A DNA stretch of 64,000 nucleotides from Blasia pusilla (GCA_050084515.1 CM114271.1:28520001-28584000), one strand, 5' to 3'. Numbered from the stretch's first letter, positions 3,701 to 44,431 are shown. The notes: generated from the letters alone by a model not told the origin. Numbers and translations: made by a program.

Positions 3701-4300
3701 GGACGTTTGTATATAACAAACCCAGGAAAAATTTCTATTCTCTGTTAGATTACAATTATTAAGGAAAAATTTTAGTTAAAGTTATAAACACATTCGTGCT
3801 TCCTTCCTCATATTTTTTTTGGCTAATCCTAGCTGAAGGGGAGCGTCATTGGTTACGATTACTTCTCCATCATGTGAGAGGAGCTCAATCATATAAAGAT
3901 TTGAGAACTATCGATGGTGTAGTTTATCCTACCTTCAAAGAGAGTGCTATTCAAATGGGACTTTTGGAGGACGATAGAGAGATCTTTTCTTGCTTTGAAG
4001 AGGCGGTTGTCATTCGCACTGGCTATTCATTACGTCTACTCTTTGCCATCAGTCTTCTATATAATACACCTTCTCTTCCGGCTATAGTGTGGGAATATTT
4101 TTTGGTTCCATTAACTGAAGATCTTCTACATCAAAAGCGTGAGGTAATATGCATGCTTTTTGTTAAGTTCATTTTTCTCTTACGAGTTTTTTAATGTATT
4201 TTATTTATGTTTTAACTTCTATATTTGTTCCTTGTAACAGAGAATTGGTATTCCGACCCTTCCATTGGATGTTCACATTATTAATCTTGCATTATTGGAG
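764..4300 (+). pseudogene. Helitron RepHel, Rep/HUH portion (spliced, disrupted)
   Basis: Motifs: CPSC..CCGHGK Zn motif, FRIQGGVYHSIG, FAQIYIHD, LPSSFIRGPRHM, GKPDYFLTMTCNPKWPEI (motif 1), VVEFKKRGLPHVHILI (HUH) and YFYKYVYKG (Y2). Short AT-rich GT-AG introns and in-frame stops are present. Confidence 0.92.
849..1113 (+). repeat. 135-bp (45-codon) in-frame tandem duplication in the Helitron N-terminal region
   Basis: LDKVHEFTDVGDPLIRSDANG...HASIPNVGS is repeated as LDEVHEIAHVGDLLIRSDAIG...HVSIPNVGS, offset 135 nt. Confidence 0.9.
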
Positions 4301-5387
4301 GTCCATTACCATCCCATATGAAGAAGTAAAGGTTCCACATCCAGCTAAATTTGGTTCCTTCAATCGCTCTTCTGAACTCTTGATCTCTCATCCTCCAGAA
4401 AGTATCCAGCGCCTCCAAGTCCTCTTCCGTCACCAGCGCTTGAGTTCCATGTTCATCGTAAGGCCGAACAAAGAACGGAGGGAAGCTGTTGAGGTAGGAT
4501 GCAGTCGCTGCTGACTGTTTAAGCTTTGCAATGTCCTCCTCCGACTGAATTTTGCGGACGTACTCCATTGTCCGCAGTTGACAGAGTGGAATTCTCGGGG
4601 GGTTCTGGCCCTCCATCAGTGCCATCTGCTTAACAACCTGCCACAATGGGGACCAAGTCAATAAAATACAGTATTTTGCCAATGAATTGCATAATGAGCC
4701 TTCACATAACTCAAAATTTTCTTACCCGCTCAAAGATTGGGTTGGTGTCCATGCCTGCCAACTGCTCTAGGATAGCAGCTGGCAAGTCCAAGGGAAAGTC
4801 ATCGATCCGATAAAGGTCGATTTCTTCCACATGGCTCAAAGACGACGAAGACTCTTCTCTTGCTTCTTCAAAGATGTCCACCATCTCCACACTTGCTGTC
4901 CTTATGACCTCATCGTCCGTCACTTGAACTTCGGCTGTTTCCTCAGCTGATTTTAGATTCATGGTGTTTCTCCGATGAATCTAAAATCTAAAATGCACCT
5001 CATCGGAGACATTTCCTGCATCTCAACACTCTCTGTTGGATGGGCAGGGCTTTCTTCAATGGCGATTGCTTTTTCCCTTCGAGCTTTCGCCAATTCTGCT
5101 CTCCTCACAGAGGCGTCAAGACGCTTCTTCTCGCGTTTTTCATCTGCGACTCTTTTCTTCAAGGCCTTTGATGCCTCAGCCTCGGCGTTTTGCTTAGCGA
5201 GCTCCTCTAGAACACGTTTTGCTATAACCTTCTGCCTGTGCATATCTGCTTCCCTTTCCCGCTCCTATATTCCTTGTTGCCTTATCTCATTCGTCGAACG
5301 AGGACCTGGAGTTGGTGACGCAGGAGTCCTGATGGACTTGGGAGTGATGCTTCCTACCTTGGTTGCTTGTGTTTTCTTTCTCGTCAT
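4301..5387 (-). pseudogene. Accessory gene of copy 1, 5' part: charged N-terminus plus first part of a ParB/Srx-like domain
   Basis: ATG at 5387 (MTRKKTQATK). Predicted intron 4725-4638 (GTAAG...CAG). Exon 2 reads RIPLCQLRTMEYVRKIQSEEDIAKLK..SY...FFV...LYFFIWDGN and is truncated at 4301. Confidence 0.75.
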
Positions 5388-5785
5388 GGTGCACGTTGGG
5401 TCAATTCTTCTTCCTCGATAGTCTAATCTGCTCCTATGCATGATAGCTCCCTCGAATCGTTTCGTGATGAAGCGTCGTGATCCTAAACCCAACTCTCTTA
5501 GAGTTTCGTGATGAAGCGCCCTGACCCTCTAGTGGATGGGCTTGTCGAAGTTGGATGCTGGATTTTTGAAGCCTTCCAGCCAAGTGGTGATGTAACCGAG
5601 TTTGGCAGCAGAAAGATAACGTCATTTGCTGTGAGGAAGAGCACATGAAATCACGAAATGAAAAACGGAGATGATCGAAACCTCAGCCTTTTATACTTTT
5701 TGAGCCGTTGAGCTGACCGATGGATCGTTGGGTCGTACCGACGGCGACGTGTTGGCCGTTATGGAACTTTGCACGTAGGAACTCA

Positions 5786-6140
5786 GGCAACCCATCGGTC
5801 TCCGACGGGTTGCACGCTTCCCTCGTCTTGGGGATGCAAGGCGAGTTACCGAGGCAACCTGTCCGAGATCGACGGGTTGCACGTATCCCTCATCCTCGGG
5901 TTGCATGCGTACAATCCGTCGGTCTCCGACGGGTTGCATGCTTCCCCCATCTTGGGGTAACAAGGCGAGGTACCCGCGCAACCTGTCGGAGACCGACGGG
6001 TTGCACTCTTCCCCCGTCTTGGGATAACAAGACAAGGTACCCGGGCAACCCATCGGAGACCGACGGATTGTACGCTTCCCTCATCTTGGGGTAACAAGGT
6101 GAGGTACCCGGGCAACCCCTTGGAGACCGACAGGTTGCAC
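5786..6140. repeat. Tandem array (about 65-bp units) of a 27-bp palindrome in the copy 1 intergenic region
   Basis: Repeated units of GCAACCCRTCGGNNNCCGACGGGTTGCAC-GCTTCCCTCRTCTTGGG. Confidence 0.9.
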
Positions 6141-6773
6141 GCTTTCCTCGTCCTCGGGTAACCATACGACAAAGCATCGTCCTGAGGCAAGCCGTTGCCC
6201 TTCGACGAGTTACAAGGTCTACCTTGGGTTGGACACTTCCCATCATAGGGAAAAACTGCACTCACGGTTTGCACGGTTCATTGGACAAGAGAAATCAACG
6301 CGAGATCCAAAAGGGAAAGCGAGGTTAGGTGCCTTTCAAACCCATCGTAGTCCCCAACGGGTTGCCGTAGCAAATCCATGCAATGTCTCCTGTCTCGATG
6401 TTAGCAAATCCCGACTCCAATCACACAGGTTAGACAGGCACGGGGTACCAACCCAACGGACTCCGACGGGTTGCAAGTTGCTCTCGGACTCTTATAGATG
6501 ATGGTACTCTGTGGCTTTGCAACGCACGTGTCTGAGTCCCAAATTTTGCAACCCGTCGGACTCCAACAGGTTGCAACAGGATTGAATTCATTCCGTTAGA
6601 CAATCTTACCTACCAAACAACATCTTGTCTGTCGAATTCTGTCAGGACCAAACGGTCTGCTATCACTATTCACTATAAATTAAACATTTTCATTTTCATT
6701 CCCATTCCCATTCTCATTCTTATTCTTATTCTCATTCTCATTCTCATTCTCCACCCGGTGGAATCATCTGGGA

Positions 6774-7531
6774 ATGGATAATTATGTGAAACTCACTTGT
6801 GGTAGTCATCTAGCGGCCCTTCCTCAATCAAGAATAGTTTGACAGCAAGCTCGTGAATCTTTCATACCAGTGGATAAAAATTTCCTCTTAGTGTGATTTC
6901 TTCTCCAAATTGGAACAATCTTTGTTTCCAAGGATGTTAGGGTGGACAGTACGGAGGACATTGTAGGTGAGACAGTCCAGCCAGTGATAGCAGACCGTAA
7001 AGTTTGGAATCTCCTACCCCTAAAAAATGGTCAATACAGAGTTTATGGCTTGCCTCTGAATTCCTCTGTTTCCCAAGTAGACGGTCCAGAATTTCCTAGT
7101 GCACCGAGCTCTACGTTTGCCACTCCAAGCTTAGTAGACTTCACACGTTTGTAACAATGTTGTACTTCTTGAAGACATTTCGGATGTCGTCAACTTCACT
7201 GGAACTGTCGCACACCAACCGGGTCCTCTATCCGCCTACTTGTTCCTCTTGCGAGTATTAGGCAATAGTTTGTTGTCATCTCTGCCCTTTAAAATGTTCA
7301 AGCACATTCTTGTCGAAGAGTTGCCGCCCACGTACGATGGTAATTGCATTTTTGAGTTGCCTCCACTTGCTGGTCTTGCTCAAAAGAAAGATGGAGGACG
7401 CTTGAAGGGTATGGACAAAAAGTATGATTGTCATCGATGGTGCATGCTTCAACGGACTAGTGCTTCAATTCCAAATGGTCCTTGGATTGTTTCTCGCCGC
7501 CAATGCGTTGGAGCCGTGGAGTGTAGAAGTC
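6774..7531 (+). pseudogene. MULE-like transposase of copy 1, 5' part
   Basis: ATG at 6774 (MDNYVKLTCGSHL, as in copy 2). TATAAA at about 6674 and an (ATTCTC)n leader precede it. Contains stops and a deletion, and is cut by the insertion. Confidence 0.88.
7523..7531 (+). other. Left 9-bp target-site duplication GTAGAAGTC
   Basis: Identical 9-mer at 18990-18998. The 9-mer is single at the equivalent position of copy 2's own uninterrupted transposase (GTGTAGAAGTCCAGC near 15384-15398). Confidence 0.95.
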
Positions 7532-9988
7532 GGGGGCTGGTATTCTGGCAAGAGAGAGGAAGAGAGGAGAGTCTCTCTTCAAAAAAAAGGGCCAAATCCG
7601 CCTCCTCTCTTCAAAACTTTTTGACATATTTGAAATTTTTGTTTGCTTTCAAATTCATGAAATCTTTAGAAGAGAGTAGGTAGTGGTCCACGTTCGGGCC
7701 TAAAGAAACCTCCTTTTTTCAGGGGGCGAAAAACTAGTAGACATCATAAGACCACTACAAAAATTTTCCCATCACTCGATCTACATGTGAGCCCAAGTTT
7801 TTTCACATTGCCTGTCTCAGTCTACAGTAAGCTATGCCCAGGGCTATTTTTTTCGGAGGACCATTGGCAAATAATGTGACCAGAAGTAGCAATCTCATCT
7901 CAACACAGGAGACGATAATTAAACCAAAAGATTGTTAGCTATCTGGAGTAAAGAGAAATCGATGTCCCTTTGTTCAGATCCTAAATCTGATAAACTGAGA
8001 TGTTGCACCCCTCCCAATCCGTCGGAATTTTACAGGTTCCAACTCTTGCAACCCGTCAGAATCAGATGGCTTGCACCCCTTGCAAGCAAGCTCACCATAA
8101 CAAAGCAAAGATTTTGAGAAGTGATTCCATTTCACCCTGCACCCATGAAAATTCAACTGTTTGGGATTCCGAAATGGCAATCCGACAGGTTATAGGAATC
8201 CAACACGTCTTAGAGAAGAAAAGAAGCCTAAGACTGGTTTGACGATACTAGGGGAACGAGCCAAAAGTGAAGAAGCCCGCCACAATGCCTCAGAATTTGG
8301 TCTACCAGGGAAAGAGTCCGACCACTCAAGCAGCCAACCTGTCGAAATCCGACAGCTTGCCTGGAAATGGTTGAAAAGTTGCAGTGGTCAAAAAGTGAAA
8401 AGTTGAAACCCGTCGGAATCACACGGGTTGCAAAATAAACATTCTGAGTAGCTAGACGAACACAATCCACAAGTCCAAAAATATTTTCTGCAAACTTTTA
8501 CAAACACCATTATCGGTTGAAAAAATCTCGTCCTTTATTACCTCCGAAGGAACCTCGGAAATGTACATTTGATCTAGTCTATGATTTCTTCAGCCTCATC
8601 ATCCACAAATTTACTCCTAACTCTCCTAGGTTCCTGTACAAAAGGAATGTCCTGGGATACAAGTGGCTCCTCTGGCCGATTGTAGACGGGGATTGAAAAT
8701 ATTGGCGAATTCGAGAGCCTTGGCCCCCCCCTAGGTACCCCATAACGGTCCCATGTAACCTGATTTGAGTCCCACCGCCTTCCTCGGCAGTATATGTTGT
8801 ACGCTCTGCAATGTGACACCCATCCAGTATCAATATGTGCTCCGTCCTTGGAAATACCATGATGGCAATCCCACAGGTAGTAGGAATCCAACACGTCTGA
8901 GAGAAAAGAAGAAGCCTACGCCTTGTTTGACGATACTAGGGGAAGGTGCCAAAGTAAAGAATCCCGCCAGAATGCCTCTAAAGTTGGACCAACACGGAAA
9001 GAGTCCGATCACTCACGCAGCCAACCTGTCGGAATCCGACAGGTTTCCTGGAAGTGGTTAAAAAATAGAATTCCTCGGAGTACATAGATGATCACATTCG
9101 AAAAGACATAAAAGATATTCAGCAAACTTTTAGAAACACCACCATCGTTCGAAAAAATCTTGTCCTTTATTACATCCGAAAGAAGCTCGGAACTGTACAT
9201 TTGATCTTTTCTATGATTTTTTTTGCCCTCGTCATCAAATAAATCCCTACTCCAAACGCTGCAGTCAAGCTGGGTCCTTGAGTTCTTTGAACTCACTCGT
9301 CATTGTCCGATAGCTCTCGCAAAATTACTGTCGGCCTTGCCCTCCCGATTTTTGGAATTGTGGGAAGTGACAATGGTGTCACTACCAGTGGTGGGTCTAG
9401 AACCGGAGCTCTCGGCTTCGGAGGAGAGTTGTACGCCCCAACTAGCCTGTCGTAATCTGCCTTTGCCTCCTTGCAAAGGTCAAACAGTTGCTGCCTTCCC
9501 TCAAGGCAGAGAATGTTCCTACCACTATGCCAGGCGCCTCTGATACTCGCCCCTGAAAGGCCCACTAAGTCGGACATCAGGTCACCCGACCTTGAGCAGA
9601 GCTTGATGAGCGTTTGCATCAGGGCTGGCGACTTTTCCCTTCCTCCAAGTAAGGGGGTACCGTCTTGCATGTAAATTCCCGAGGGGGGAGCGGGGAATTG
9701 TATAAACTATCTAAGGTGTACCCATCGGAGCATGGATCCACAGGATCCATGATCTTAAAAACCTGGAAGTTGTGCTCGGGCCAAACAAAGCAGTAAACAT
9801 AGGAGTGGTCCATCTGTAAGGATGCACGTTGGAAACAATGTCAGCACCAAGAAAGAGCTACTTGACCACTGGTCTACTTTCAGTATGGTGACATAATGTG
9901 CAACACGTCCCCAAAGAACTTCTCTTAACCCCAGAGAACTTCGCTATAATCTTAACATTGGAGCAACCTGTCGGAGTCCGACGGGTTG

Positions 9989-10347
9989 TTTTTGTCCATG
10001 AGCAACCCGTCGGAAGGTGACAGGTTGCTGGCTTAGAGCAGCCCATGGTTGGCTGAGAGCAACCCGTCGCTTTCCGACGGGTTGCATCATTCCAGAAACA
10101 TAGGGAAAATGCATTACCACCTGCAACCCGTCCGGTCGAGGGGGCCCCATAAAAAGCATGCATGAAGGGAATCAAACTCGCAATAGGACCCCCTGCGAGT
10201 TCCGACGGGTTGCAGGTGGTAATGCGTTTTCCCTGTGTTTCTAGAATGATGCAACCCGTTGGAAAGCGACGGCTTGCTCTCAGCCAACCATGGGCTGCTC
10301 TAAGCCAGCAACCTGTCGCCTTTCGATGGGTTGCTCATGGACAAAAA
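9989..10347. repeat. Long inverted repeat (about 160-bp arms, about 40-nt spacer) inside an intron
   Basis: TTTTTGTCCATGAGCAACCC...CATTACCACCTGCAACCCGTC is mirrored by GACGGGTTGCAGGTGGTAATG...GGTTGCTCATGGACAAAAA. Confidence 0.93.
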
Positions 10348-12769
10348 GAATCCGTCGGAGAAATACAATCTAGAGACAGGAATAGAGCCTTACCCGAATT
10401 TGACTCGTCGCAGATTGGAGTGGGTACTCGTTCTTGATGATCCACGATTGCGCCGTCCTCCACTTCAGCGACCTCTTGACCCACTGGAGGTTGAAAAGCT
10501 TGTCCTCGCTCCCTCCAGTCAAAACTAAGAAACAGCCCCTGTCATTGAGATAAGCGTCTGCAAAGGAAACAGGAGTGCGATCTGGTCATAAGAAAGGGGG
10601 ACATTCAAGTCTGGGACCCCGTCGGACGGATTCTCGTCCCACAAGCGCAACCCCGAGGGCAAATCAGCGACCAGCAGATCCACCGCTACCTCTTCGACCA
10701 CCCCATGGACCGTCCAGGGAGCGTGCCCGTTTTGTTGAAGCTTCCGTCCCAGCGTTGTCAATTTCTCGATGGCGGATGTCGACGCTTGGGAACTGAAACT
10801 TTTCAGCTCATCCAGTAGATTCGTGTGGTGAAGGATGACGCTTGTTCAGGTCATTGTTTCTCTATGTCTTCCCAAGGATGATGGACTGTATTCCACATCC
10901 TGGTCTGCTCCCTGGGACAACCCCGGCGCCTCTTCCTTCCGCTTCTCTCGAGTCTGCGGTTGGCTTGTTGGGGTCTCTATGACCTCAGACTCTGGTGGAG
11001 TTTTTTTTGCGGAGGACCTGGTCCGACCCTCTCTCCCCGCTCGCCCGGACGATTCCGGCTCTTGCCTTGAATTTTTAGCCTCTCTTTGGGAAGACTCGGC
11101 CTCGGAATTCTTCAATCCCCTTGCCTTGGCTTTGAGACCCGCTGTAGATTTGTCCTTGGGTGTGACAACCTTGGACTCCAACTCCGTTGTCTCAGGGCTT
11201 GGTCTTCCGCATCTCCTTCGAAAAAGTCTTCAGGTTGCACAAAATTGGGGATGTCGTCCCTACCTGCGGCCACTGCATCATAAAGCAGGCGTAGATCTTT
11301 CTCGGTTATGTTCTCAGGGTCGTTCAAGTCCAGCCAAATCCTCCTAAACAATAAAAATATTTACATGAGGAGGGACGTTCGGGCAATTCTCCACCTCCCA
11401 ATCGGACATGCTTTGAGCCATCTCCGTGTCGTATATGGAAAATGTCTCTCCATCACGCAGAGAAGCCCACAATTTTCAGGCTGCCGGTTATTTTTGCCAT
11501 GTACCTGCATTCTTACAATGGACGAGGTACCTGAACACCATGCGTTGGGCAGCTCTTAGTCGAGATGCATCGTCCGCCTGCTCCTGAAGATCTCGCTTCT
11601 TCTTTGCGAGATCCCTTTTTTTCGCCTCGATTTCTTCGTCAAGGTCTGCCTGAGGGAGGATGCGATCCTTGGACATCGTCCTGAAACCTGGGTTTTTTAT
11701 GGGCTTGTCCCGGATGTCATCCAACCAAAGTTCAAAATCATCAGCACTCTCCAGGTTTGCTTCCTCCGGAAGTGGCTCTATTCTTTTCAGCTCCGCTTGG
11801 AGACCCACGAGCATGGACTTCCCGAAAAGCCGCAACGCGTCCCAGAATGACCATTCCCGGATCCAGTGGGAGATCACTGGAACTGAGACACCTGGAGGAT
11901 GGTGTGCCGCCCTCTTTTGGGCCTATGTGCCCTCGAGACTGATTTTCATTAGTTGTATTCTCCTAAATTTGCTTATTCCAGACAAGGCAAATCGATGCAC
12001 GCGATCGAGAGACACATTCTCCCCAATCCGACCTTACGGATCTTCATCCCTTTTCCTCTGGCGCTTGATTATCGCCTTCAGCTCCTTGTAGAAATCAGGA
12101 CAAAGTTCCGGGTTGAGAATGGCGATGTAGCACTGCATCTTGCTTGCCGTGTACTTTGTAGCTGCAGATACTGCAGCTTGGATGAATTTTGCACGCTCAG
12201 ACACAGACACTTTCTCCCTCCAATGCAGCGCTCTTCTTGGCGGCCTGTATCTTCGACCAGCAAAGGATTGTGACGCCTGCATCTTGGGAAATAAATTTAT
12301 TTGCCCAAGTCTTCTTTTTGATTTGTGCACCCTTTGCCAGCATCTCATTTACAAGGGCATCGCCCAAGAACCCCTTGTACTCTGCCGGGTGCGTCGTTAG
12401 CACTTTCTTCACCCGATCGCAATCCTGGATCCAGCGGCGGGTGACAGTCCCCTCCGATAAAATCTTGCACATCCAAACTCAATATAAGAAATTTTGTAAG
12501 GTACATGGGTTCCAACAACCCGTCGGACTCCGACATGTCGTCACAGCTCATGGTTGGATTGTAGCAACGAGCTAAATTTTGCAAGCCATTGGAGTCTGAC
12601 GGATTGCATTCAGATTTGTGATTGCCTGGTTTCAACCCGTCGGACTCCAACGGGTTGTCAGATAGTCCGTATTTACATAGTGGTTACCGCGAGAAAAGTG
12701 AACATATCAACCCGTCGGAGCCGACAAGTTGCGCGATTTCAATGAAAGCTGCACTTTGACGCCAAAAAT

Positions 12770-13250
12770 GTAGCTCCCAACTTCCGAATGCAACCTGTCG
12801 GACTTTGACCAGTTGCTTTCGGCCAAAAAGATCCAAAAACAGCTTCGAGTCAAGCAACCCGTCGGACTCCGACGAGTTGCTTTCTTCAAAAAACATCCAA
12901 AAAATGCGGCGAGTCGAGCAACTCGTCGGACTCCGAAGAGTTGCTTTCTTCAAAATACATCCAAAGAATGCGGCCAGTCGAGCAACTCGTCGGACTCCGA
13001 CGAGTTGCTTTGGGCCAAAAACATCCTAAACCTGTGGTCAGTCGAACAACTCGTCGGACTCTGACGAGTTGCTTTCGGCCAAAAACATTCTAAACCAATG
13101 ATCAGTCGAGCAACTCGTCGGAGTCCGACGAGTTGCTTTCCGCCAAAAAAATCCTAAACCAGTGATCAGTCGAGCAACTCGTCGGAGTCAACGAGTTGCT
13201 TTCGGCCAAAAACATCCCAAAAAACTTGTCGGAGTTCGACGGTTTGCAGC
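12770..13250. repeat. About 59-bp tandem array carrying the palindrome variant GCAACTCGTCGGACTCCGACGAGTTGC, intronic
   Basis: About 8 consecutive units of CAGTCGAGCAACTCGTCGGA(C/G)TCCGACGAGTTGCTTTCGGCCAAAAACATCC. Confidence 0.92.
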
Positions 13251-13731
13251 AAGAGGAAACTTACGTGTTCATGGCATGCATGGCCATCTCCACCGTCGCC
13301 ATGTGATGAGGGTATGGATGTAGCACCACTGCCTTCACGGAAAAATGTGCCTCCAATGAGTTTGGGCGCTCCTCTTCAAAGTGGGTCCACGCCATGAACC
13401 TATGATTTCCATCCCAGATGAAGAAATACAGGTTCCTCATCCAGCTGAATTCCGTCCCCTCTATCGCCCTTCTGAATTCTTTTTGTCGGCGATCCTTTTC
13501 TTCAAAGCGTGCGAGGCCTCTCCCTCTGCGTTCTGTCTTTTGAGCGCCTCATTTACACGTTTTGCAAGAAGCTCATGCTTGTGCATCTCCGCTTCCCTTT
13601 CCCGCTCCTCGATTTCTTGCTGCCTTATCTCATTGGTCGAACGAGGCCCTGGACATGGTGACGCAGGAGTCCTCATGGACTTGGGAGTGAAGCTCCCAGC
13701 CTTGTTTGCGTGAGATTTTTTTCCTCGTCAT

Positions 13732-14622
13732 TTTTCCCAAAAATGCCTCCTCCTATGTGCACGATGAATCGCTTGATGAGTCGCCTTGCTGATGTCGAGA
13801 TGAGTTGCCTTGATGGGTAGCTCGAATCGTCTTGCGATCGTTCACTCGAATCGTCTTGCGATGACTCGCCGTGTTAAGCACCCCTTGGTATCTGGTCAGC
13901 TGCTGCGCGGGAGAGCAATTGAGATCGCGAAATGAAAAACCGGAAATGAGCGATTTCTCCCCTATTTATACTTTTCGAGCCGTTGGACTGACCGTTGGGT
14001 CGCATCGTCCTTCCGACAGCGACGTGCCTTGACGTGAAAAAAACCAACCCGACGGCTTCGACAGGTTGCACGCTTTTGGAGGGTTCAAGGCATCCGTCCT
14101 TGTGGCAACCCGTCCGAGATGGACAGGTTGCGCGCCTCCGCCATCCTGGGCCGAGAACACGAGGTGCCCGAGAAACCCGTTGGAGACCGTTGGGTTGCAC
14201 GCTTCCCTCGTCTTGGGATAACAACGCAGGCTTCACAAGATGTATCCTGAGTTGGACAATCCCGCAAAAGTCCCCAAAAATTGGTTGCCCTAGCATTAGC
14301 AAGTGATATCTTGTGTTTGATGCTAGCAAAATCGCCTCAGAAGATCTTCGGTCGGCAAGAAGGGGGTACCTACCCAACAGACTCTGACAGGTTCCAACAA
14401 AATGAAGTGTGCTTCGCAACCCACGTCTCTGATTCCCAAATTTTGTAACCCACCTGACTCTGATAGGTTGCAGCAGAATTGAATCCATTGTGTCAGACAT
14501 TTTCACCTACCAAACTTCATCTTGTCAGTCAGATTCTGTAAGGAGAATCTGAGTTCCTATTCACTATAAATTAAACATTCTCATTCTCATTCTCATTCTC
14601 CTCCTGGTGGAATCTTCTGGGA
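13732..14622. promoter_or_regulatory. Putative bidirectional promoter region between the two divergent genes
   Basis: TATAAA at about 14565 (+) and TATAAATA at about 13963-13970 (-). Matching TATA boxes are conserved in copy 1 (about 6674 and about 5690). Palindromes lie between them. Confidence 0.55.
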
Positions 14623-17600
14623 ATGGATAATTATGTGAAGCTCACTTGTGGTAGTCATCTAGTGGCCCTTCCTCAATCAAAAATCGTTCGACCACAAGCT
14701 CGTGAGTCTTTCATAGCAGTGGATGAAAATTTTCTCTCTGTTCGATTTCTTCTCCAAATTGGAACCATCTTTGTATCCAAGGATGTTAGGATGGACGGTA
14801 CGGAGGACATAATAGGTGAGACACTCCATCCAGTGATTGCAGACCGTAAAGTATGGAATCTGCTACCTCTAGCAAATGGTCAATATAGAGTTTACGGCTT
14901 ACCCCTGAATTCCTCTGTTTCCCAAGTAGACGGTCGAGAATTTCCTAGTGCACCGAGCTCTACGTTTGCAACTCCTAGCTCAGTAGATCCGGCTTCGACT
15001 CCAACTTCACACGCTCGTAACAATGTTGTTCTTCTTGAAGAGATTCCGGATGTTATCAACCTCAGTGGATCTGTCAGACACCAACCGGGCCCTCTGTCCG
15101 CCTACTCGTTCCTCTTGCGAGTATCAGGCAATAGTTTGCTATCGTCTCTGGCCTTGAAAATGTTCAAGCACATTCTTGTCGACGAGATTCTGCCCACGTA
15201 CGATGGTAATTGCATTTTTGAGTTGCCTCCACTTGCGCTCTGCTCAAAAGAAAGATGGAGGGCGTCGAAGGGTATGGGACGAAAGTCTAATTGTCATCGA
15301 TGGTGCGAGCTTCAGCGGACTAGTGCTTCAATTCCAGATGGTCCTTGGATTGTCTCCCGCCGCCAATGCGTTGGAGCCTTGGAGTGTAGAAGTCCAGCAT
15401 GCCCGTATGTAGAGCGCAACGGGCGAGTCAATACATCGCAATTTCACCCCAAGAATGCAGAAACTCCATACGAGGTCGGTGCCACCATACCGCCGGGAGG
15501 CCATCGATGTCTGATTGTCGCATCGCCACGATTGGACCGTGTCTGCATACATATTTTTCATTGTCCACGACTTGGGCTCCACGTCGAGTACACAAGGTGG
15601 CAGTTCATGTTGGCTCCCACACTCATCCTGTGACCGATGCAATTCACAGACACATCAAGGAGGATGTGGCGAAGAAAGTTGCCGAGGTCTACAGAAACTC
15701 TCCGGGTTCAAAGCCTGGACTGATCAAGCTCACAACAACATCAAAAATTTGTGAACAATTGCTTGGAATCCCTAGACAGGGCAAGATCACGGCGGCTGAG
15801 GAGAAACAACTCTGGGAAAATCTCGCATTTCTCGCTGATCCTAAATGCTTCCAGAATTTGCTGCGTCAAATACGGGTTCTGGATGGAAAGACGGCCGAAA
15901 TGGATGTCATCGCCAGAATCAAGGCCAACTCCAGATTTCCATTCATTCAGAGATGGCAGTTCATGGGCCAAGGAGGCGAGGGATCCAGGGCCTATGTCTT
16001 CAAAATATCAACCACAGGTCCGTCGAGTGGCCTCGATCTTATAGATCAAATGAAGGAAGGGGAAGATCTTTACGACAGCTGGGTAAGCTTTGATATTTGC
16101 TACAGAGTGCTGAGCGGATGGTTGACAATGGGTGCTCATGTTTATGACCATGTGGAGAAGGGACTCAAAACTATATTTGTCTGTGAAGTAAAAGCAGAAG
16201 ACGTTGGCAGTTTGAAGATGTGCTGGTTACTCTTATTGGAGGTGGTGAAGGAAAACACAAGGCCAACTCCGGAAATTTATGGGTTCATGGCGGACAATGC
16301 ACAACCTGGGTGGATTGCTATCTGGGAAGTGTTTTGGGATGGAGAGGTTCAACCGGAGAGGGAAAGGTCGGATGCTTTCCATTGCATCAAGGAGAATAAG
16401 AGGACAGAGCATGTCACTCTACTCCAACGCTGCAAGGACAACAAAACCTTGAAACAGGCCATGGAATACCAAGAAGAACTTCATGGCTGGTGGAGGAAGC
16501 ATGCGATTGAGGGGAAGTACAAAGAGTTGTGCTCTTGGTTGAGTTGGTGGGCTGTACGTATGAGACAATGGGGAAACTTCATGCGGCAGGTGAGTTCACT
16601 ATTTTGTCTTGTCAAGCTCACGCTGAGAATTGTTTGTAAAGTTGCAGCTCAAGTTGAGAAGCGTGGGAACTATAGGGATTTCAAACCGAAGAAACCAAGC
16701 AAGTTGTCGGATGCGACGGGTTGCCCGAGTGTGCAACCCGTCGGAAACGGACGGGTTTCCTGAGTGTGCAACCAGTCGAAAACCGGCGGGTTGCATCCAG
16801 AATTTTGGTGCAACCCGTATACAAGTATCCAAGTCGCATGTATACAAGGCCTGCAAATAGTTCGACCCGGATGGGTTTCGGATGACTTGCACTTGGATCT
16901 TCCATCCCGGAGTGGCCAAAGGTTCTTGCAACCCGTCGGAATCCAACGGATTGCAGTAGGTGGGTTTAGGGTTGCAACACGTCGGGACCCGACGGGTCGC
17001 AGAGTCGTTTATGGGATGCCTCGGCCTTGCAACCCGTTTGGTTCCGACAGGTAGCTTATTTCTTTGACTCCTGAGCTATTTTCGTTCCCTTCTAACATTG
17101 CCGTCGTTGCAGGGATTGAACATTCATGAAAATGTCCTCTGCCCCAACACAAGTGGAGCAGAAAGTGTTCATTCCTCTTGGAGGTCGTTACAAGCATGCC
17201 AACGAATTTTACTTGTGGAGGCATGCCAAGAAGACCAGGCAAGAGCAATGCTACAGTCTGCAGCATCCCATATCTTCCTCACAAAAGGCATAACAAAAGG
17301 AAGGGGGCCTTCGATCTACGAGCTCTATGTCAGGGCGGCTGTGAGATCTGGTGATGAAAAACTCTATGTGGAAGCCTTCAACCGGTGCGTAGCTGGAACT
17401 CCCCTTGAGCAAGACGTACACATTGGTGGGGATATTCATGGGCGGGTTTCAAGACGTCCCATACAGATGGTGGTAGAGCAGTCCGAGCGAGACTCGTGGA
17501 GACCACATAAGTATATTGACTTCAGGCAGGTGAAGAGGCAGCAACGAGGAACGAATCCGGTGATTGATTTGGATGAGGAAATTACGCCGCCCAGGTTTTC

Positions 17601-18597
17601 GGGGACCCCGGACCGCTCCCAAATCCGTGATGGAGTAACTTCTCCCTCCGTTGCTGGAAGTTCGCAACATCCGATCGGTGGGGTGGTTCAACAATATGGG
17701 ATTCCGGTAATGGAGGTGGATTGCAACCTAAATCGGTGGCATATATCTCGGAGCAACCCAAGACGTGGACCCACCTGCAGGGTAGGATCTGATGGCATTA
17801 GGAGAGCATGCGGCACTTTCCTAAATAAGAATTGTACAAGGACTGGACGACCACTGGCTGGGTTTTGGGGACTCAAAACCTTTGATCGTTTCACGAGGAC
17901 CGGGGATCAATTGAAGTACTTCTTCTGCCCAAATAAATCTTGCGCTTTCCGAAAGTCTTATCCAGCTGCCATTAGAGCTCCAGGGAATACCCCCACCATT
18001 TGGCCCATCGCCGTAGGTACGAACTGCACTCAAGACGAAGTGGACAATCTTACAAGTGCCGGTTTCAGACTCGTAGACGGGGGAAGTTCGGAGCATGTTC
18101 GTATTACAGAGACCTTCGCATTTCGTATTCAACCCAAGATTGATGTCAATATGTACCCGAAGAAAGTGGATGATCTCAATCCACTATTTCTGTTTGAGTC
18201 TAGAAATGGGGTGAAGAGAAACAGAATGTGTAGGCCAACGGTGGAGAGAGCAAAGCGAATTGCATCAGCTCGGGAGGCAAAAATGGAGATCATCGCCACA
18301 AAAGATGTCCTACGTGGCAATGGAATAGGAAGGATGTATTGGGTCAGGAACAACACTGTAAATTCAAGTGTCATAGGAGTGTATTTGGTGCACATCTGTT
18401 GCTTTCCCACATGTTCATGTGATAACTTTGTCCAAAGAGAGACAAGTCGCAAAAGGTATTTCCCTTGTAAGCACATGTACTATGTGTTGTTGGTAGTTTT
18501 AAGAGAGTCGGAGGTAGGAGTAGGAATCCACCAACCAATTCTGTCCCTCAAAGAAGTGCTATTATTTTTAACAAACCATTTTGAGGATGCAAAATGA
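14623..18597 (+). pseudogene. Mutator-like (MULE) transposase with GCM/WRKY-like Zn finger and C-terminal SWIM finger; exons 14623-16589 and 17113-18597
   Basis: Zn motif CVGALECRSPACP...HVGSHTHP. DDE-like motifs WVSFDICYR / GFMADNA / SDAFH / TSGAESVHSSW. SWIM motif CSCDNF..PCKHMYYV. Intron GTGAGT(16590)...TGCAG(17112). Has frameshifts and an 11-codon deletion relative to copy 1. Confidence 0.88.
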
Positions 18598-18989
18598 GGT
18601 TTTAGATTGTATTCATTTTTCAAGAATTGTACTTTCATTTTTCACTTCAGCTTGAACTCTATTCAGCCCAGGGCAAATGATAGATTATTTCCAGACCTTG
18701 GATGGAAAAAGTGATTGGTTCCACACTTATGATTCCACTTATTTTTCAGTTTTGTAAATTTTGTGCAATTTGCAACCGGTCGGACTCAGATGGGTTGCCA
18801 AAATATGGAAGAGAAAAAAAAAACTATGGGACTGCTTAATAACTGAGCAAAAAAGTACAAAAAAATTCACAAAAAAAATTTCCTCTCTTCAACCCAACGG
18901 AAACTCTCTTAAAAAAAAAGTATCTATTCCGGTTGAAGGTAGTTTCCTCTCTCCTCTCTTCCTCTCTTCCTCTCCTCTTACCGCACCTC

Positions 18990-18998
18990 GTAGAAGTC
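18990..18998 (+). other. Right 9-bp target-site duplication GTAGAAGTC
   Basis: Matches 7523-7531 exactly. Confidence 0.95.
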
Positions 18999-21900
18999 CA
19001 GCATGCCCGTATCTTGAGCGCAATGGGCGAGTCAATACGTCGCAATTCCCCCCTAAGAATGCAAAAACTCCATATGAGGTCAGTGAGACCATACCGCCAA
19101 GAGGCCATCGATGTCCTCATTGTCAGGCATCCTCTTTCTGCGTTGGAGCGTGTCCTGAATACATATTTTTCATTGTCCACGACTTCAGTTCTACTTCGGA
19201 GTATACAAGGCTGGAAGTTCAGGTTGGCTCCCACATTTATCTTGTTATCGGTGCAATTCAGAGACATATCAAGGAGGATGTGGCAAAGAAAGTGGTCGAG
19301 GTATATGGATACTCTGTGGGATCAAAGCCCGGAGTGATCAAGTTAACAACAGCATCTCAAATTTGTGAACAATTGCTTGGAATCCTTGGGCAGGGCGAGA
19401 TCACGGTTGCTGAGGAGAAACAACTCTGGGAAAATCTCACATTTCTCGCTGATCCTAAATGCTTCCAGAAGTTGCTACGTCAAATACGGATATTGGATGG
19501 AAAGATGGCCGAAATGTATACCATTGCTAGAATCAAGGCCAACTCCAGATTTCCATTTATTCAGAGATGGCAGTTCATGGGCCAGGGAGGCAAAGGATTA
19601 AGGGCTTATGTCTTCAAAATGTCAACAACAGGGCCCTCGAGTGGCCTCGATCTTATAGATCGAATGAAGGAAGGGGAAGATCTTTACGGCAGCTGGGTAG
19701 GCTTTGATATTTGCTACAGAGTGCTGAATGGATGGTTGACCATGGATGCTCACGTTTATGACCATGTCAAGAAGGGACTCAAAACTATATTTGTCTGTGA
19801 GGTAAAAGCAGAAGACGTTGGTAGTTTGAAGATGTGTTGGTTACTCTTATTGGAGGTGGTGAAGGAAAACAAAAGGCCACCTCCGAAAATTTATGGATGC
19901 ATGGCGGAAAATGCACAACCTGGGTGGATTGCTATCAGGGAAGTGTTCTCGGGTGGAGAGGTTCAACTAGAGAGGGGAAGGTCGGATGCTTTCCATTGGC
20001 AACAGTCTGTGACCCGGTATACCAAATCTTGCATCAAGGAGAAAAAGAGGACAGAGCATGTCACTCTACTCCAACGCTGCAAGGACAGCAAAACCTTGAA
20101 ACAGGCCATGGAATACCAAGAAGAATTTCATGGGTGGTGGAGGAAGCAAGCGATTGGCTCAATTGGTGGACTGTACGAATGAGACAATGGCGAAACGTCA
20201 TGCGGCAGGTGAGTTCAGTATTTCGTCTTGTCGAGCTCATGTTGAGAATTTTTTGAAAAGTTGCAGCTCAAGTTGAGAGTCGTGGGCACTAAAGGGATTT
20301 CAAACGGAAGAAACCAAGCAACCCGTCGGATGCGACGGGTTTTCTGAGTGTGCAACCCGTCGGAAACCGACGGGTTTCGTGAGTGTGCAACCAGTCAAAA
20401 ACCGACGGGTTGCATTAAGAATTTTTGTATTACCCGTCGGAGCACGACATCATGCACGAGGAATGTTTGTGCAACCCGTCGGAATCCGATTGGTTGCATG
20501 AGTGTGCAACCTGTCGAGTCCCGACGGGTTGCAAGTTGCATATATACAAGGCCTGCAAATTGTTTGACTCAGATGGGTTGCAAGCCGCAAGGCTGCGAGT
20601 CCGTCAGATTCCGACAAGTTGCATCTGTCAGCAACATGTGGGATTCCGACTAGTTGCGTCTGTATGCAACTCCTTGCATTCAGACAGGTTGCGGTTGTCT
20701 CCAAGTCGCATCCACACATGTTTTATCAGTTCAAGTTAATTGGAACCCGTCAAATTTCAATAGTTGCAAAGCTTCGTGTGTGGACACTTCTTGCAAGCCA
20801 ACGGAATCCGACAGGTCGCACAAGAATTTTCGAGACTGGACCGGCCTGCTTCTCACAACCCGTCTGATTCCGACGGGTTGTAGTACAACCTTTGAGTGCT
20901 AGGTTGCAGTAAAAGGTTACATGGATATTCCAGGGATGTCTCCGACTTGCAACCCGTTTCAAGTCGGAGGCTGGAAAATCCATGTGCGGTTTGTCGGATT
21001 CCGATGACTTGCACTTGGATCTTCCAGTCTAGAGTGGCCAAAGTTACTTGCAACCAGTTTGAATCCCACGGGTTGCAGTAGGTGGTTCCTGGGTGTTGCA
21101 ACATGTCGGAAACCGACGGATCGTAGAGTCATTCATGGGATGCCTCCGACTTGCAACCTGTCTAGTTCCGACAAGTAGCTTTTTTCTTTGCTCATAGACG
21201 TTCCCTTCTTACATTGTCGTCGTTGCACGGATTGAACATTCATGAAAATGCCCTCTGCCCCAACACAAGTGGAGCAGAAAGTGTTCATTCCTCTTGGAGG
21301 TCGTCACAAGCATATCAAAGAATTTCACTTGTGGAGGCATGCCAACAAGACCAGGCAAGAGCAATGCTACAGTCTGCAGCATCCCATATCTTCCTCACAA
21401 AAGGCATAATAAAAGGAAGGGGTCTTTGATTTACGAGCTCTATGTTAGGGCGGCTATGAGATCTGGTGATGAGAAACTGTATATGGAAGCCTTCAATCGG
21501 TGCGTAGCAAGAACTCCCCTCGAGCAAGATGTACACATTGGTGGGGATATTTGTGGGTGTGTTTCAAGACGTCCCATACAGATGGTGGTAGAGCAGTCCG
21601 AGCAAGACTTGTGGAGACCAGATAAGTATCTTGACTTCAGGCAAGTGAAGAGGCAGCATCGAGGAACGAACCCTGTGATTGATTTGGATGAAGAAATTAC
21701 GCCGCCCAGGTATTTGGAGACCCTAGATTGCTCCAAAATCTATGATGTAGTAACTTCTCCAAAATGAGTGAATATTTTATTTCAAAAGCCCTCCGTTGCT
21801 AGAAGTTTCCAACATCCAGTCGCTGGGGTGGTTCAACAGTATGGGATTCCGTTCATTGAGGTGGATTGCAACCTCAAAAGATGGCATATATCTCAGAGCA

Positions 21901-22724
21901 ACCCTGGACGTCGACCCACTTGCAGGGCAGGATCTGATGGCATTAGGAGAGCATGCGGCACTTTCCTAAATAAGAACTGTACAAGGACTGGACGACCACT
22001 ACCTCGATTTTGGGGACTCAAAACCTTTGATTGTTTCACGAGGATCGGGGATCAATTGAAGTACTTCTTCTGCCCAAATGACTCCTGCGCTTTCTGAAAG
22101 TCTTATCCAGCTGCCATTGGAGCTCCAGGGAATACCCCCCCAGTCTGGCCCATTGCCAAAGGTACAAATTGCACTCAAGAGGAAGTGGACTCAAGTTCCG
22201 GTTTCAGACTCGTAGACGGAGAAAGTTCGGAGCACGTTCGCATTACAGAGACCTTTGTATTTCGGAATCAACCCAAGATTGATGTCAATATGTACCTAGA
22301 GAAGGTGGATGATCTCAATCCACTATTTCTGTTTGAGTCTAGAAATGGGATGAAGAGAAACAGAATGTGTAGGCCAACGGCGGAGAGAGCGAAGCGAATC
22401 GCATCAGCTCGGGAGGCAAACATGAAAATCATCGCCACAAAAGATGTCTAGAGTGGGAATGGAATAGGAAGGATGTATTGGGTGAGGAACAACACTACAA
22501 ATTCAAGTGTCATAGGGGTGTATGTGGTGCACATCTGTTGCTTTCCCACATGTTCCTGTGATGACTTTGTCCAAAGAGAGACAAGTGGGAAAAGGTATTT
22601 TCCTTGTAAGCACATGTACTATGTGTTGCTTGTAGTTTTAAGAGAGTTGGAGGTAAGAGTAGGAATCCACCAACCAATTCTTTCCCTCAGAGAAGTGCAA
22701 AGTATTTTAAACAAACCACTTTGA
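18990..22724 (+). pseudogene. MULE-like transposase of copy 1, 3' part (DDE plus SWIM)
   Basis: Paralogous to 15386-18597. Intron 20209-21228 has a mutated acceptor (CAC). Multiple stops. Confidence 0.9.
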
Positions 22725-23112
22725 GGATGCAAAATGAGGTTCTTCACTTTGAGCTTGAACTCTATTCAGCCCAGGGAAAATGATAGATGTTTTCCAGACC
22801 TTGGATGGAAAAGTGATTTGTTCCACATTTATGATTCCAATGATTTTTCTATTTTTTAAATTTTATGAAAATTGCAACCCGTCGAATTTTGACGGGTTAC
22901 CAAAATGTGGAAGAGGAAAAAAAATGTGTGGGAGTGCCTAAGCACTGAGAATAAAAGTGCAAAAAAATTCACACAAAAATTTTCCTCTCTTCAACCCAAC
23001 AGAAACTCTCTTCAAATCACAGGAAACTCTCTTCAAAAAAATGTATCTCTTTCGGTTGAAGGTAGTTTCCTCTCTCCTCTCTTCCTCTCTTCCTCTCCTC
23101 TTACCGCTCCTC

Positions 23113-24219
23113 AAGTAGTTCCTGCACGCTTACGATATATATTGTGTGGTTCCGCCCGTGGTGCAGCCATGATGCTAGTCTGTGATGAGTGTTCGAGAGG
23201 ATGGCATATGGCATGTCTGACGTCACCTCTCGCTAGGGTTCTTGAGGGACGATGGATGTGTTCCAGATGTACATAAAGTAGATAGTTATAGATTCCGACT
23301 TGTGTCTATGATATGGATGACAAGAAGGCGACTAATGATGGGGCCACATGAGCACCCGGCCTTTATGCTCGTAGCGTCCGAGAGATGTATATAATGGTAA
23401 GTAGGGATATATGGCTATCTGGAGTTAGAGGGACCTAACCACCAATTACGGGGGAAATTGGAGATATTTTGGTACTTCTTGTCTCATTTTTTGGATGCCA
23501 TGAGTTAGCATGGGATCGTGTGTGTTTGTATGTATCTTCGTTGTCAACGATGTATGTTGTGTAGCGATGTGTATGTGCACGATAACTGTCAAGAATTTTA
23601 GGATAGATCGGCAAGATCTAGTAGAGGGCCTTTGGAGATAGTGGAGAAGAGCCTGAGGAGGTCGAGGATGACCTACTGAGGCCACGGGTAACCTGAGAGA
23701 GTAGGTTTTCCCTTTGTTTCGGCTTTGGAGCCATATAGAGAAACTTACTATTTTGGGTAAGTTTCTATCTGGAGTATAGTTGACTTTACACTTTGGGAAG
23801 GGGCCCTTGACCCGCTTCAGCAGGTCAAGAGCCAAGGGAGCTGACCAACAAGCATAGGTTACAGAGGAGAGCGCTTGGGAGAGGGAAGGGGATATACCTC
23901 CAAGAGAGAGAGCTTGAGAGCTCATTCTCTTTTTGTTGAACCTCTTGGCATGAGGCAGTGGAGCTATGGTTTTCCTTGCCTTGTGTGTGTAACCCAAACC
24001 TCTCATTAGGAGAGTGGGGTTGGTTTGACTTGAGAGAGAGTCCACACCATGGAGAGCTTGGTGTGAGATGTGATGAGAGATCTCATTAATTTATTGGAGA
24101 TATTTTGGTACTTCTCGTCTCGTTGTTTGGATGCCATGAGTTAGCATGTGATCATGCGTATTTGTGTGTATGTTTGTTGACAATGATGTATGTTGTGTAG
24201 CGATTTATATGCGTAGACA
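23113..24219 (+). mobile_element. 3' fragment of a PHD-finger Ty3/gypsy element: PHD, PPT and LTR (23459-24219)
   Basis: LCGSARGAAMMLVCDECSRGWHMACLTSPLARVLEGRWMCSRCT is followed by a purine tract, then an LTR with about 125-bp direct repeats at 23459-23584 and 24095-24219. Confidence 0.85.
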
Positions 24220-33310: not shown

Positions 33311-33687
33311 GGCTGAGGAGAGATGGATGCGAGTGACACCCATGCCGTCACGTCCACGAGATGGACCATTGCCTACAGGGTCTCTACAGGCATTGGCTGG
33401 GGGCAAGACAAGGAGAGATAGGCACCCATGGACTTCCTGGGACATCATTCGAGCGGAGAGTGCGAAGGCGGCCAGAGTAGCACATGTTCATTTTTTGGAT
33501 GTGGAGCATGGTGGAGGAGGTCATAGTGGAGTGGCTCTTGCGGAGGTGGCTAGGGTTGCTACATAACAACCAAAGCCGGAGGTGGCATCCTCTCTGAGTG
33601 AGGTCACGATGGAGACTTGGGAGCCTGTGATAGGACTCAAGTTGACAGGAGGAGAGCCATGGCGAGTTCATAGGTTTCTGAGAGGGC

Positions 33688-44038: not shown

Positions 44039-44431
44039 TGTTAGATAAATACATTTTAGATAAAGGTGTTCGACTTAAAATGTGTTAAAGGAACTACCTA
44101 AATGCTGCTACTCTTAGCAGTCCGACATCTAAGCTAAAAGGGTCACTTGGCCACTTGGTCAGCTGGCCACTTGGCCACTTAGTCACTTGGCTACTTGGCC
44201 ACTTGGTCACTTGGTCACTTGGCCACTTGGTCAGTTGGCTAGTTGGCCACTTGGTCACTTGGTCACTTGGTCACTTTGCCACTCAGACTATTTTGTCTCT
44301 AGCCAATATCCAGATTAGTATATAATCTGGGGCTTGAATAAACATCAGGTTTGAAGTTCTCCATTAAGCTTAGTCGCAGCTTTACCATTGTATCATTACC
44401 ATTGTGTCTACATCTCTCATATAGTTTAACA
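44039..44431 (+). repeat. Solo LTR of family B (393 bp) inserted in element B pol, with 5-bp TSD ATCCA
   Basis: TGTTAG...TAACA, flanked by ATCCA at 44034-44038 and 44432-44436. Internal 9-bp tandem repeat of CACTTGG(C/T)-type units. Confidence 0.93.

Follow-up and report, generated by a model that had tools for sequence, protein, structure and literature searches.

A decayed cut-and-paste transposon of Blasia pusilla, nested in an older copy of its family, with a divergent methyltransferase-like accessory gene and 27-bp palindromes

Can a plant transposon encode a protein that recognizes sites arrayed through the element's own non-coding DNA, and would such a protein modify, shield or regulate the DNA that it binds? 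The mechanism by which transposons evade or tune silencing by the host has been worked out for very few elements, with VANDAL/VANC as the main case in plants. The question is raised by a 64,000-nucleotide stretch of the Blasia pusilla genome (GCA_050084515.1 CM114271.1:28520001-28584000; hereafter the window, with positions counted from its first letter), in which a preliminary description had noted an 11.46-kb unit at 7532-18989, flanked by a perfect 9-bp target-site duplication (TSD) and carrying a transposase gene, a divergent gene with ParB/Srx-like and amino-methyltransferase-like motifs, and dozens of 27-bp palindromes. We find that 7532-18989 is a decayed cut-and-paste DNA transposon that entered an older member of its own family, within that member's transposase gene. 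Besides the transposase, the family carries a divergent accessory gene, whose predicted product starts with a DG(N)HR (ParB/DGQHR-type) region and closes with a domain derived from beta-class N6/N4 DNA methyltransferases. As a tentative reading, to which we give less than even probability, we propose that the palindromes were bound by an element protein, likely a non-catalytic dimer of the accessory product.

The limits of the inner, younger copy (7532-18989, + strand; 11,458 bp) are fixed by its flanks, which between them carry a paralog of its own transposase gene, split into two halves. The 9-mer GTAGAAGTC stands on both sides, at 7523-7531 and at 18990-18998, and the corresponding uninterrupted site within the inner transposase gene (15386-15394, +), a paralogous "empty site" that reads ...GGAGTGTAGAAGTCCAGCATGCCC..., contains it once; a three-way alignment places the element exactly between the two 9-mer copies of the outer gene. 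Because the flanks are halves of a paralogous gene and the empty site is single-copy, both the boundaries and the 9-bp duplication are exact, beyond what a chance 9-mer match would give, and the unit stands as first delimited. When the inner unit was compared by blastn with the remainder of the window, 14411-15394 paired with 6514-7531 (82.6%), 15386-16818 with 18990-20437 (85.2%), 16874-18989 with 20996-23112 (85.3%) and 13480-13731 with 5137-5387 (79.8%). Overall the two copies diverge at 11.4% of aligned columns (534/4,679; 299 transitions and 235 transversions). Alignment of the ends added a feature that the preliminary description had not recorded, namely apparent, imperfect GA-rich terminal inverted repeats (TIRs): the left terminus (7532-7571, +) begins GGGGGCTGGTA, the right terminus (18946-18989, -) reads GAGGTGCGGTA... 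in reverse complement, and the two, each continuing into a GA-rich tract, align over about 40 nt, imperfectly, with a 7-nt indel and in sequence of low complexity. The right end of the outer copy, at 23112, is near-identical to that of the inner one.

The outer, older copy, recognized by its paralogy to the inner copy, extends from about 4284 to 23112 (+). Its left part (4284-7531, +), delimited by blastn and open reading frames (ORFs), comprises the 5' parts of both genes, accessory and transposase, and between them a promoter carrying a 67-bp palindrome array; its right part (18990-23112, +), delimited by blastn and end alignment, holds the remainder of the transposase gene, a palindrome-bearing intron and the right terminus. 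The copy is cut at about 4300, where it abuts Helitron-type coding sequence (1359-4296, +; Pfam Helitron_like_N at 1359-2954, E=8e-51). Immediately beyond its right end, at 23113-23275 (+), a Cys/His-rich, PHD-finger-like peptide, ...CDECSRGWHMACL...CSRC, can be made out by eye. Both genes are broken in both copies, a point that the preliminary description had missed for the inner copy, and hence nothing at this locus works today.

The transposase gene of the inner copy lies on the plus strand at 14575-18597 and, from ORFs and alignment with homologs, consists of pieces at 14575-15633, 15390-16763 and 17068-18597. Alignment also places a putative intron at 16590-17067 (+), which opens with a GTGAGT donor at 16590 and contains at least five palindromes; the ORFs of relatives end just past ...RQWGNYIRLV, exactly where the window donor stands, and the intron position is therefore common to the window gene and its relatives. 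The alignment conserves FDI..., FMADNA...AI.EVF and SDAFH, together with a Cys/His-rich N-terminal region and a C-terminal CxCx15CxH, a layout that we take to be Mutator-like. Mutator-like elements (MULEs) are marked by a DDE core in which the second D is followed by a [C/D]xxH motif, and the TSD length of 9 bp falls within the Mutator range of about 9 bp (8-11). Profile searches gave less. The SWIM-like zinc-finger motif at 18406-18495 (+), which reads CSCx15CKH in translation, matched Pfam SWIM (PF04434) at E=0.05 and 13.6 bits, below the cut-off of 19.6, and no Pfam transposase family (PF10551, PF00872, PF03108) matched at E<=10 when the window ORFs, three database homologs and six metagenome-locus ORFs were queried. 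A word-indexed search of 5.8 billion proteins yielded three transposase relatives among 2,439 candidates, at 39-41% identity and none with a Pfam domain, and a PDB sequence search with the transposase returned no meaningful match. The earlier assignment to a MULE/SWIM transposase thus keeps a sub-threshold zinc finger but no transposase profile: judged by eye, the layout fits a Mutator-like enzyme, and the formal profile test failed.

Decay of this gene took different forms in the two copies. The inner gene switches frame between 15513 and 15588 and has lost 11 residues after SDAFH; the outer gene, besides being interrupted by the insertion, has MAENA where the second acidic position lies and shifts frame near 20100. 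Between the copies, three long transposase segments gave dN/dS ratios of 0.22 (127 codons), 0.44 (369 codons) and 0.38 (435 codons), and the remaining aligned segments 0.39-1.2. Just upstream of the outer transposase coding region, at 6685-6751, the hexanucleotide CATTCT is repeated 11 times.

Divergent from the transposase gene, as first described, is the accessory gene (9296-13731, -; ATG at 13731-13729), a pseudogene in the inner copy. Its ORF pieces, all on the minus strand, lie at 13727-13464, 13548-13264, 12478-12200, 12348-12037, 11922-11491, 11360-11115, 11229-10849, 10845-10528, 10585-10373 and 9706-9296, and from these we read a putative multi-exon structure; the preliminary description had called the gene spliced, and the arrangement in several pieces agrees with this, splicing itself being predicted from the ORFs. 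The inner copy has an extra base in an A-run five codons past the ATG, an in-frame TGA (10846-10848, -) that separates two pieces of the same frame, and a frame change near 10575. It also lacks about 0.73 kb of coding sequence that the outer copy keeps: there, ORFs and alignment recover the 5' part of the gene (4284-5387, -), with exon 1 at 5378-5121 (69% amino-acid identity to inner exon 1) and with ORFs 4980-4714 and 4721-4284, which account for the 0.73 kb and run in frame into EFRRAIEG...IWDGN, ...EFRRAIEGTKFSWMWNLYFFIWDGN. The dN/dS ratio of exon 1 between the copies is 0.26, in a small sample of 86 codons. Since the outer copy retains the 5' part of the gene and exon 1 carries this ratio, the two copies indicate that the accessory gene is a component of the family and not the one-off capture that the preliminary description had raised as the outcome fatal to its proposal. 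Taken with the values of 0.22-0.44 in the transposase gene, the ratio suggests that both genes were once under constraint, during part of the divergence of the copies.

What kind of protein did the accessory gene encode? Its 3' end is the more legible. An S-adenosylmethionine (AdoMet)-binding-type module at 9500-9637 (-), EKSPALMQTLIKL...GDLMSDLVGLSGAS...CLE, is homologous to beta-class N6/N4 DNA methyltransferases, and several searches with the last accessory piece (9706-9296) converge on this family. PF01555 (N6_N4_Mtase) is found in 29 of its 30 nearest ESM Atlas clusters (best score 0.95); the Pfam profile itself matches at E=0.09, over positions 165-220 of 221, with scores for the window exon (13.1 bits) and for the relative P0005 (22.0 bits) that remain below the gathering threshold of 26.7 bits; a PHROG DNA methyltransferase profile matches at E=6e-4 and PADLOC MTase_II at E=0.0035. 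A four-sequence profile matched M1.HpyAVI/DpnA at E=4.4e-4, the best 8 of 13 PDB rows being N6/N4 DNA methyltransferases. Exhaustive HMMER comparison with 1.84 billion representative proteins returned five at E<=0.001, of which P0005, P0006 and P0007 (36-40% identity) are genuine relatives; P0004 and P0008 were discarded as false matches with internal repeats. These results indicate, by homology, that the C-terminal module descends from beta-class N6/N4 DNA methyltransferases.

P0006 and the near-identical P0009 (KAG0605740.1 and KAG0624017.1) are "hypothetical proteins" of the moss Ceratodon purpureus, with locus tags on two chromosomes; the methyltransferase-like gene has no other long relatives in the databases searched, and the two probably represent annotated transposon genes. 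Members of the P0007 cluster occur on up to 20 contigs, and such a multi-copy state is consistent with a transposon gene. The match of P0006 to the window is colinear across motif IV, a middle part and the C-terminal module: residues 433-450 align with the motif IV piece, residues 473-526 with ORF 10585-10373 (E=0.014) and residues 579-647 with the last exon (E=5.6e-11). No profile of Pfam, NCBIfam, PADLOC or PHROGs recognized the N-terminal half of the methyltransferase-like domain, and no locus related to the last accessory exon was found in the metagenome and viral contigs searched.

The residues on which catalysis would depend are altered. Catalytic motif IV is defined as (D/N/S)PP(Y/F/W); at its position in the window (10639-10689, -), VAVDLLVADLPSGLRLW, translation and alignment give DLPS (GAT TTG CCC TCG) in place of DPPY, and Ceratodon P0006/P0009 have DAPE, likewise with no aromatic residue. 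Motif I reads DLVGLSGAS, DWSANTGAS, DLSASTSAS and DLTSLTGAS in the four sequences that align here to DPFMGSGTT of 5hek, and FxGxG is gone. An origin of DLPS from DPPY solely by C>T decay was considered and rejected, as the Ser codon misfits and the Ceratodon relative has DAPE there. Because relatives at 32-39% identity share the pattern, the degenerate motifs look like a trait of the family and not like decay of the window copy alone. Structure prediction added little: an AlphaFold2 model of a 279-aa part of P0006, built from a 6-row alignment, reached a predicted local distance difference test score (pLDDT) of 44.6, too poor to judge the pocket, and Foldseek with this low-confidence model placed 5hfj (M1.HpyAVI), 6pbd (CcrM) and 2zig (TTHA0409) in its top rows, at E>=0.042 and TM scores of 0.2-0.37, with nothing at E<=0.001. 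The amino-methyltransferase-like character claimed at the outset is thus upheld as homology of the C-terminal module but not in motif IV or FxGxG, and since both motifs are absent here and in the moss relatives, the further claim that the protein modifies DNA is doubtful.

The 5' part of the gene is where a ParB/Srx-like region had been proposed. The piece 13548-13264 contains YFFIWDGNHRFMAW (13387-13431), a DG(Q/H)HR-type motif, and the DG(N)HR motif itself appears in translation as LYFFIWDGNHRFMAW at the same coordinates (-); the outer copy retains YFFIWDGN and is then cut off. Most ESM neighbors of this piece are clusters without a name; as leads, one cluster has ParB_N on 11% of its members and DUF6551 is also represented. 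The word-indexed protein search found no relatives of the exon. We regard the ParB assignment, made from a short motif in the sequence, as the weakest part of the reading of the gene.

The consensus of the palindromes, GCAACCCGTCGG-NNN-CCGACGGGTTGC, spans 27 bp, with 12-nt arms and a 3-nt spacer. Allowing up to 3 mismatches, the window has 55 strand-matches to the 27-nt pattern against 0.00 expected from shuffled sequence, and every one falls within 5787-22900; the 12-nt half-site, at up to 2 mismatches, occurs 90 times, always at 5787-22885 inside the two copies and never in the other ~45 kb. Half-sites form 32 pairs (21 in the inner copy and 11 in the outer), 30 with a 3-nt and 2 with a 2-nt spacer. 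In the inner copy one of 56 half-sites overlaps a putative exon; ORF pieces total 6,987 nt (overlaps included) of its 11,458 nt. The dozens of non-coding palindromes reported in the preliminary description are confirmed. By pattern search, palindromes and half-sites cluster in the left subterminal region (8014-9047), in the last accessory intron (9963-10359), in the first long accessory intron (12515-13247, which includes a 64-bp tandem array of 6.8 copies at 12790-13223), in the divergent intergenic, or promoter, region (14044-14471) and in the transposase intron (16713-17055), and a single one (18772-18798) lies about 190-200 bp from the right end, with its outer counterpart at 22874-22900. 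The terminal repeats and the first 480 bp at the left end have none. The divergent promoter is filled by palindromes in both copies, in the outer one as the 67-bp array at 5787-6162. Array sizes differ between the copies, the outer intron having ~0.5 kb more palindrome-bearing sequence and the periods being 64 and 67 bp. Among half-site mismatches, 69 of 114 are C>T or G>A, a pattern that fits decay of methylated DNA, and the observed/expected CpG ratio reaches 0.78 for the inner and 0.72 for the outer copy, against 0.47 in the rest of the window, CpG-rich palindromes accounting for part of the difference. Within the last accessory intron, palindromes build a 156-nt inverted repeat (9977-10132 and 10204-10359; 94% complementary, 71-nt loop); a transcript of it, if made, would fold into a long hairpin, from which small RNAs directed against the element might derive.

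In the account that we tentatively favor, the 27-bp palindromes of the shared promoter, the introns and the subterminal DNA would be element-specific sites, operators or loading sites, bound by an element-encoded protein. The binder would most likely be a dimer of the accessory protein, acting through its ParB-like region, since this protein has the DG(N)HR region, published parallels join ParB proteins to repeats, and palindromes fill the promoter that the two genes share. With the catalytic and AdoMet motifs missing from its methyltransferase-like domain, it would most likely regulate or shield the element's chromatin or transcription, or act there as a recruiter, and would less likely be an active methylase. 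KorB, DndB and VANC are comparable regulator or shield proteins. The preliminary description had likewise proposed that the accessory protein binds the palindromes and modifies or shields the element's DNA; the exclusive occurrence of the palindromes in the two copies agrees with binding, but the degenerate motifs do not agree with modification.

Several observations weigh against this account. The sole profile match of the DGNHR piece is to NCBIfam TIGR03187 (DGQHR, DndB-type), at E=0.026 and 14.2 bits against a cut-off of 58.85, and Pfam, PADLOC, PHROGs and PDB sequences gave no match at all; of the ParB/Srx-like region first proposed there remain the motif and this weak similarity. A single-sequence AlphaFold model of the outer-copy ORF was unusable (pLDDT 38.3). 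Neither Ceratodon gene model (P0006, P0009) has a DGNHR region, either because the models miss upstream exons or because that lineage is without it. That the ParB-like and methyltransferase-like parts belong to one protein is read from the colinearity of the ORF pieces. The relatives sampled could all be decayed copies themselves, and the degenerate motifs could be compatible with some activity. The transposase's cysteine-rich N-terminal region could instead be the palindrome binder. Lastly, a profile-guided scan of metagenome contigs found 15 loci with transposase relatives (25-45% identity), and 0 of the 15 carried the accessory gene when queried with the 10 window ORF pieces and four database relatives; the longer contigs of distant relatives (25-40% identity) had neither the gene nor recurrent palindromes, so that the transposase clade as a whole does not share the system.

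One of the 15 loci did have recurrent palindromes. This locus, L002, is a 2,078-bp contig whose transposase is 45% identical to that of the window, and three copies of an unrelated, perfect 26-bp palindrome, TATTGCTAGCGCCGGCGCTAGCAATA, lie at 1098-1305, within the first 230 bp of the homologous transposase intron; the contig is too short to reveal or exclude an accessory gene. Two other short loci, L001 and L008, have no palindromes, the former having no intron at this place and the latter stopping before it. In this single case, a different palindrome at the same place in the intron resembles lineage-specific protein-binding sites.

Such sites might instead serve the transposase. On this alternative, which we consider unlikely though it is the strongest rival, the palindromes are transposase-binding sites, recognized for instance by the N-terminal cysteine-rich domain and used, like the subterminal repeats of En/Spm or Ac, in synapsis or autoregulation, and the accessory protein is unrelated to them. 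Subterminal arrays of transposase-binding motifs are established in CACTA and hAT elements. Here palindromes occur in both subterminal regions, including the one that each copy has about 200 bp from its right end, the transposase has conserved Cys/His clusters at its N-terminus, and L002 joins a transposase to palindromes of its own with no accessory gene visible in its 2,078 bp, a length too short to exclude one. Most palindromes, however, are internal, in introns and promoter, and none lies in the first 480 bp on the left or in the terminal repeats; synapsis sites do not look like tandem arrays that stand over 5 kb away from either end, and the distant transposase relatives are without recurrent palindromes.

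The palindromes may also have no protein partner. They would then be a self-propagating hairpin or satellite, spread by slippage or recombination and possibly giving rise to hairpin RNA and to small RNAs that would feed silencing, with coding selection alone keeping them out of exons. The differing array lengths (~0.5 kb more in the outer intron; periods of 64 and 67 bp), the 156-nt inverted repeat made of palindromes and the 69 of 114 half-site mismatches that are C>T or G>A, by which sites here decay freely, all agree with such an origin. We think it improbable nevertheless, for 30 of 32 pairs have the fixed 3-nt spacer and conservation of the 12-nt arms is good, the palindromes are concentrated in the divergent promoter of both copies, and at the matching intron position of a relative there stands an equally sized but unrelated palindrome, which points to a maintained architecture and away from a chance satellite.

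That the accessory protein was an active ParB-guided N6-adenine/N4-cytosine DNA methyltransferase, loading on the palindromes and methylating its own element for self-marking or anti-silencing, draws on the descent of its domain, on the raised CpG ratios of the copies, to which the palindromes contribute, and on the commonness of ParB-methyltransferase fusions in phages and plasmids, but with DLPS or DAPE and no aromatic residue at motif IV, FxGxG lost in all four family members seen and the N-terminal half of the domain unmatched in the libraries searched, we judge it very unlikely. The same idea has been proposed for algal transposon proteins. Methyltransferases encoded in phage ParB-terminase loci are described in PMC4738411.

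The reading that assigns the palindromes to the accessory protein can be carried further, to a proposition that we put forward as speculative and on balance improbable: that mosses harbor a Mutator-like family in which a ParB/DGQHR module, fused to a catalytically degenerate module derived from N6/N4 methyltransferases, would read element-specific 27-bp palindromes in the divergent promoter, the introns and the subterminal DNA, protein and palindrome co-evolving so that every lineage would have a palindrome of its own, and by which the element would control or shield its own chromatin. If true, land plants would have in it a counterpart of VANC and of plasmid KorB that transformable mosses would make testable.

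Elsewhere in the window, retrotransposon coding sequence lies at 33003-36203 (+; RVT_1 at 33682-34419) and 61519-63364 (-; RVT_1 at 61519-62172), and copia-type coding sequence at 41692-45695 (+; gag_pre-integrs/rve at 42536-43669 and RVT_2 at 44430-45695), all by Pfam; a further fragment at 49364-50693 (+) appears copia-like by eye in translation. An ORF at 31052-31570 (-) with an emp24/GOLD domain (Pfam E=1.4e-9) is probably an exon of a host gene.

How does the family compare with known systems? VANDAL21 of Arabidopsis, in the Mutator superfamily, encodes VANC, which counters silencing and recognizes arrays of short motifs in non-coding DNA of the element itself, and it shares with the window element both the superfamily proposed here and the pairing of an accessory protein with arrayed non-coding motifs. 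VANC is, however, neither ParB-like nor methyltransferase-like, its motifs are short and not 27-bp palindromes, and VANDALs are without TIRs, whereas the window element has apparent, imperfect ones. KorB of plasmid RK2 and DndB are ParB-superfamily regulators that bind palindromic operators on their mobile element or operon and control its transcription. The likeness lies in the DGQHR (DndB-type) match of the accessory protein's N-terminal region, its sole family match and a weak one at 14.2 bits; KorB and DndB differ in being bacterial and in having no methyltransferase-like domain.

The preliminary description had not recognized the combination in any described plant transposon family, but parallels have been published from algae. 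According to the accessible text of Dinatale et al. (2025; PMC12477816), the 21.5-kb Ectocarpus element Sola1-1_Ec32 carries a gene for a 1104-aa protein with ParB-like and DNA methyltransferase (4mC/6mA) parts, and the authors suggest that this protein binds and epigenetically modifies its own transposon. As in the window, the accessory gene lies opposite the transposase, and it unites ParB-like with N4/N6-type methyltransferase parts, as the window gene would; a comparison of the two descriptions also shows a different superfamily (Sola1 against Mutator-like with a 9-bp TSD), a brown-algal host and degenerate motifs in the window family, and that portion of the text makes no mention of palindrome arrays. 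In red algal Plavaka elements, Petroll et al. (bioRxiv 10.1101/2025.02.11.637652, in the part accessible) describe PAG2, an N6-adenine methylase with SET, and PAG3, a ParB protein with a 2OG oxygenase, report tandem inverted-repeat arrays adjoining PAG3 and accessory-gene homologs in Mutator elements of Chondrus crispus, and propose that accessory proteins bind and modify their own elements. A ParB accessory protein beside inverted-repeat arrays, and accessory genes that cross superfamilies including Mutator, recall the window family; in the red algae, by contrast, ParB is fused to an oxygenase, the methylase is separate and joined to SET, and the elements are mainly giant EnSpm/Plavaka ones, whereas the window element measures 11.5 kb and would hold its putative ParB-like and methyltransferase-like parts in one gene.

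More distant parallels bear on the parts of the protein. DIRS1 retrotransposons carry an inactive methyltransferase domain, with substituted catalytic and substrate-binding residues and thought to be non-catalytic, and ParB-HTH-fused Dam-type methyltransferases occur in chlorophytes and chytrids (Iyer et al., 2015; PMC4738411, same accessible part). The DIRS1 domain resembles ours in being transposon-borne, methyltransferase-derived and altered at key residues, and differs in belonging to a PCIF1-like clade and a retroelement polyprotein, without ParB-like region or palindromes. In the accessible portion of PMC8885841, N4CMT of bdelloid rotifers is a bacterial-type N6_N4 methyltransferase that acts on eukaryotic genome DNA and deposits 4mC, though as a host gene and not a transposon-borne one, and in that of O'Toole et al. 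(2026; PMC13229309) a phage ParB homolog activates a DNA-modifying dioxygenase.

Our literature searches found no report of a land-plant transposon with a ParB and DNA methyltransferase accessory gene, and a survey of 1,007 plant genomes for active TIR transposons (PMC12973397) makes, in its accessible text, no mention of ParB and mentions "methyltransferase" once, for the host OsDRM2. On this comparison, ParB/methyltransferase accessory genes and inverted-repeat arrays have already been described in algal transposons, of which this element would be a new example, probably the first in a moss-type land-plant context. To the algal proposals, which in the accessible texts have ParB accessory proteins bind their own inverted-repeat arrays and were made without experiments, it adds an exactly delimited case with an empty site, two nested copies, each with the gene and the palindromes, a relative in which another palindrome occupies the corresponding place, and named homologs in the moss Ceratodon purpureus. 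The degenerate methyltransferase motifs caution against assuming that such proteins methylate DNA, and the idea common to the algal elements and this one becomes testable in a land-plant lineage with laboratory genetics.

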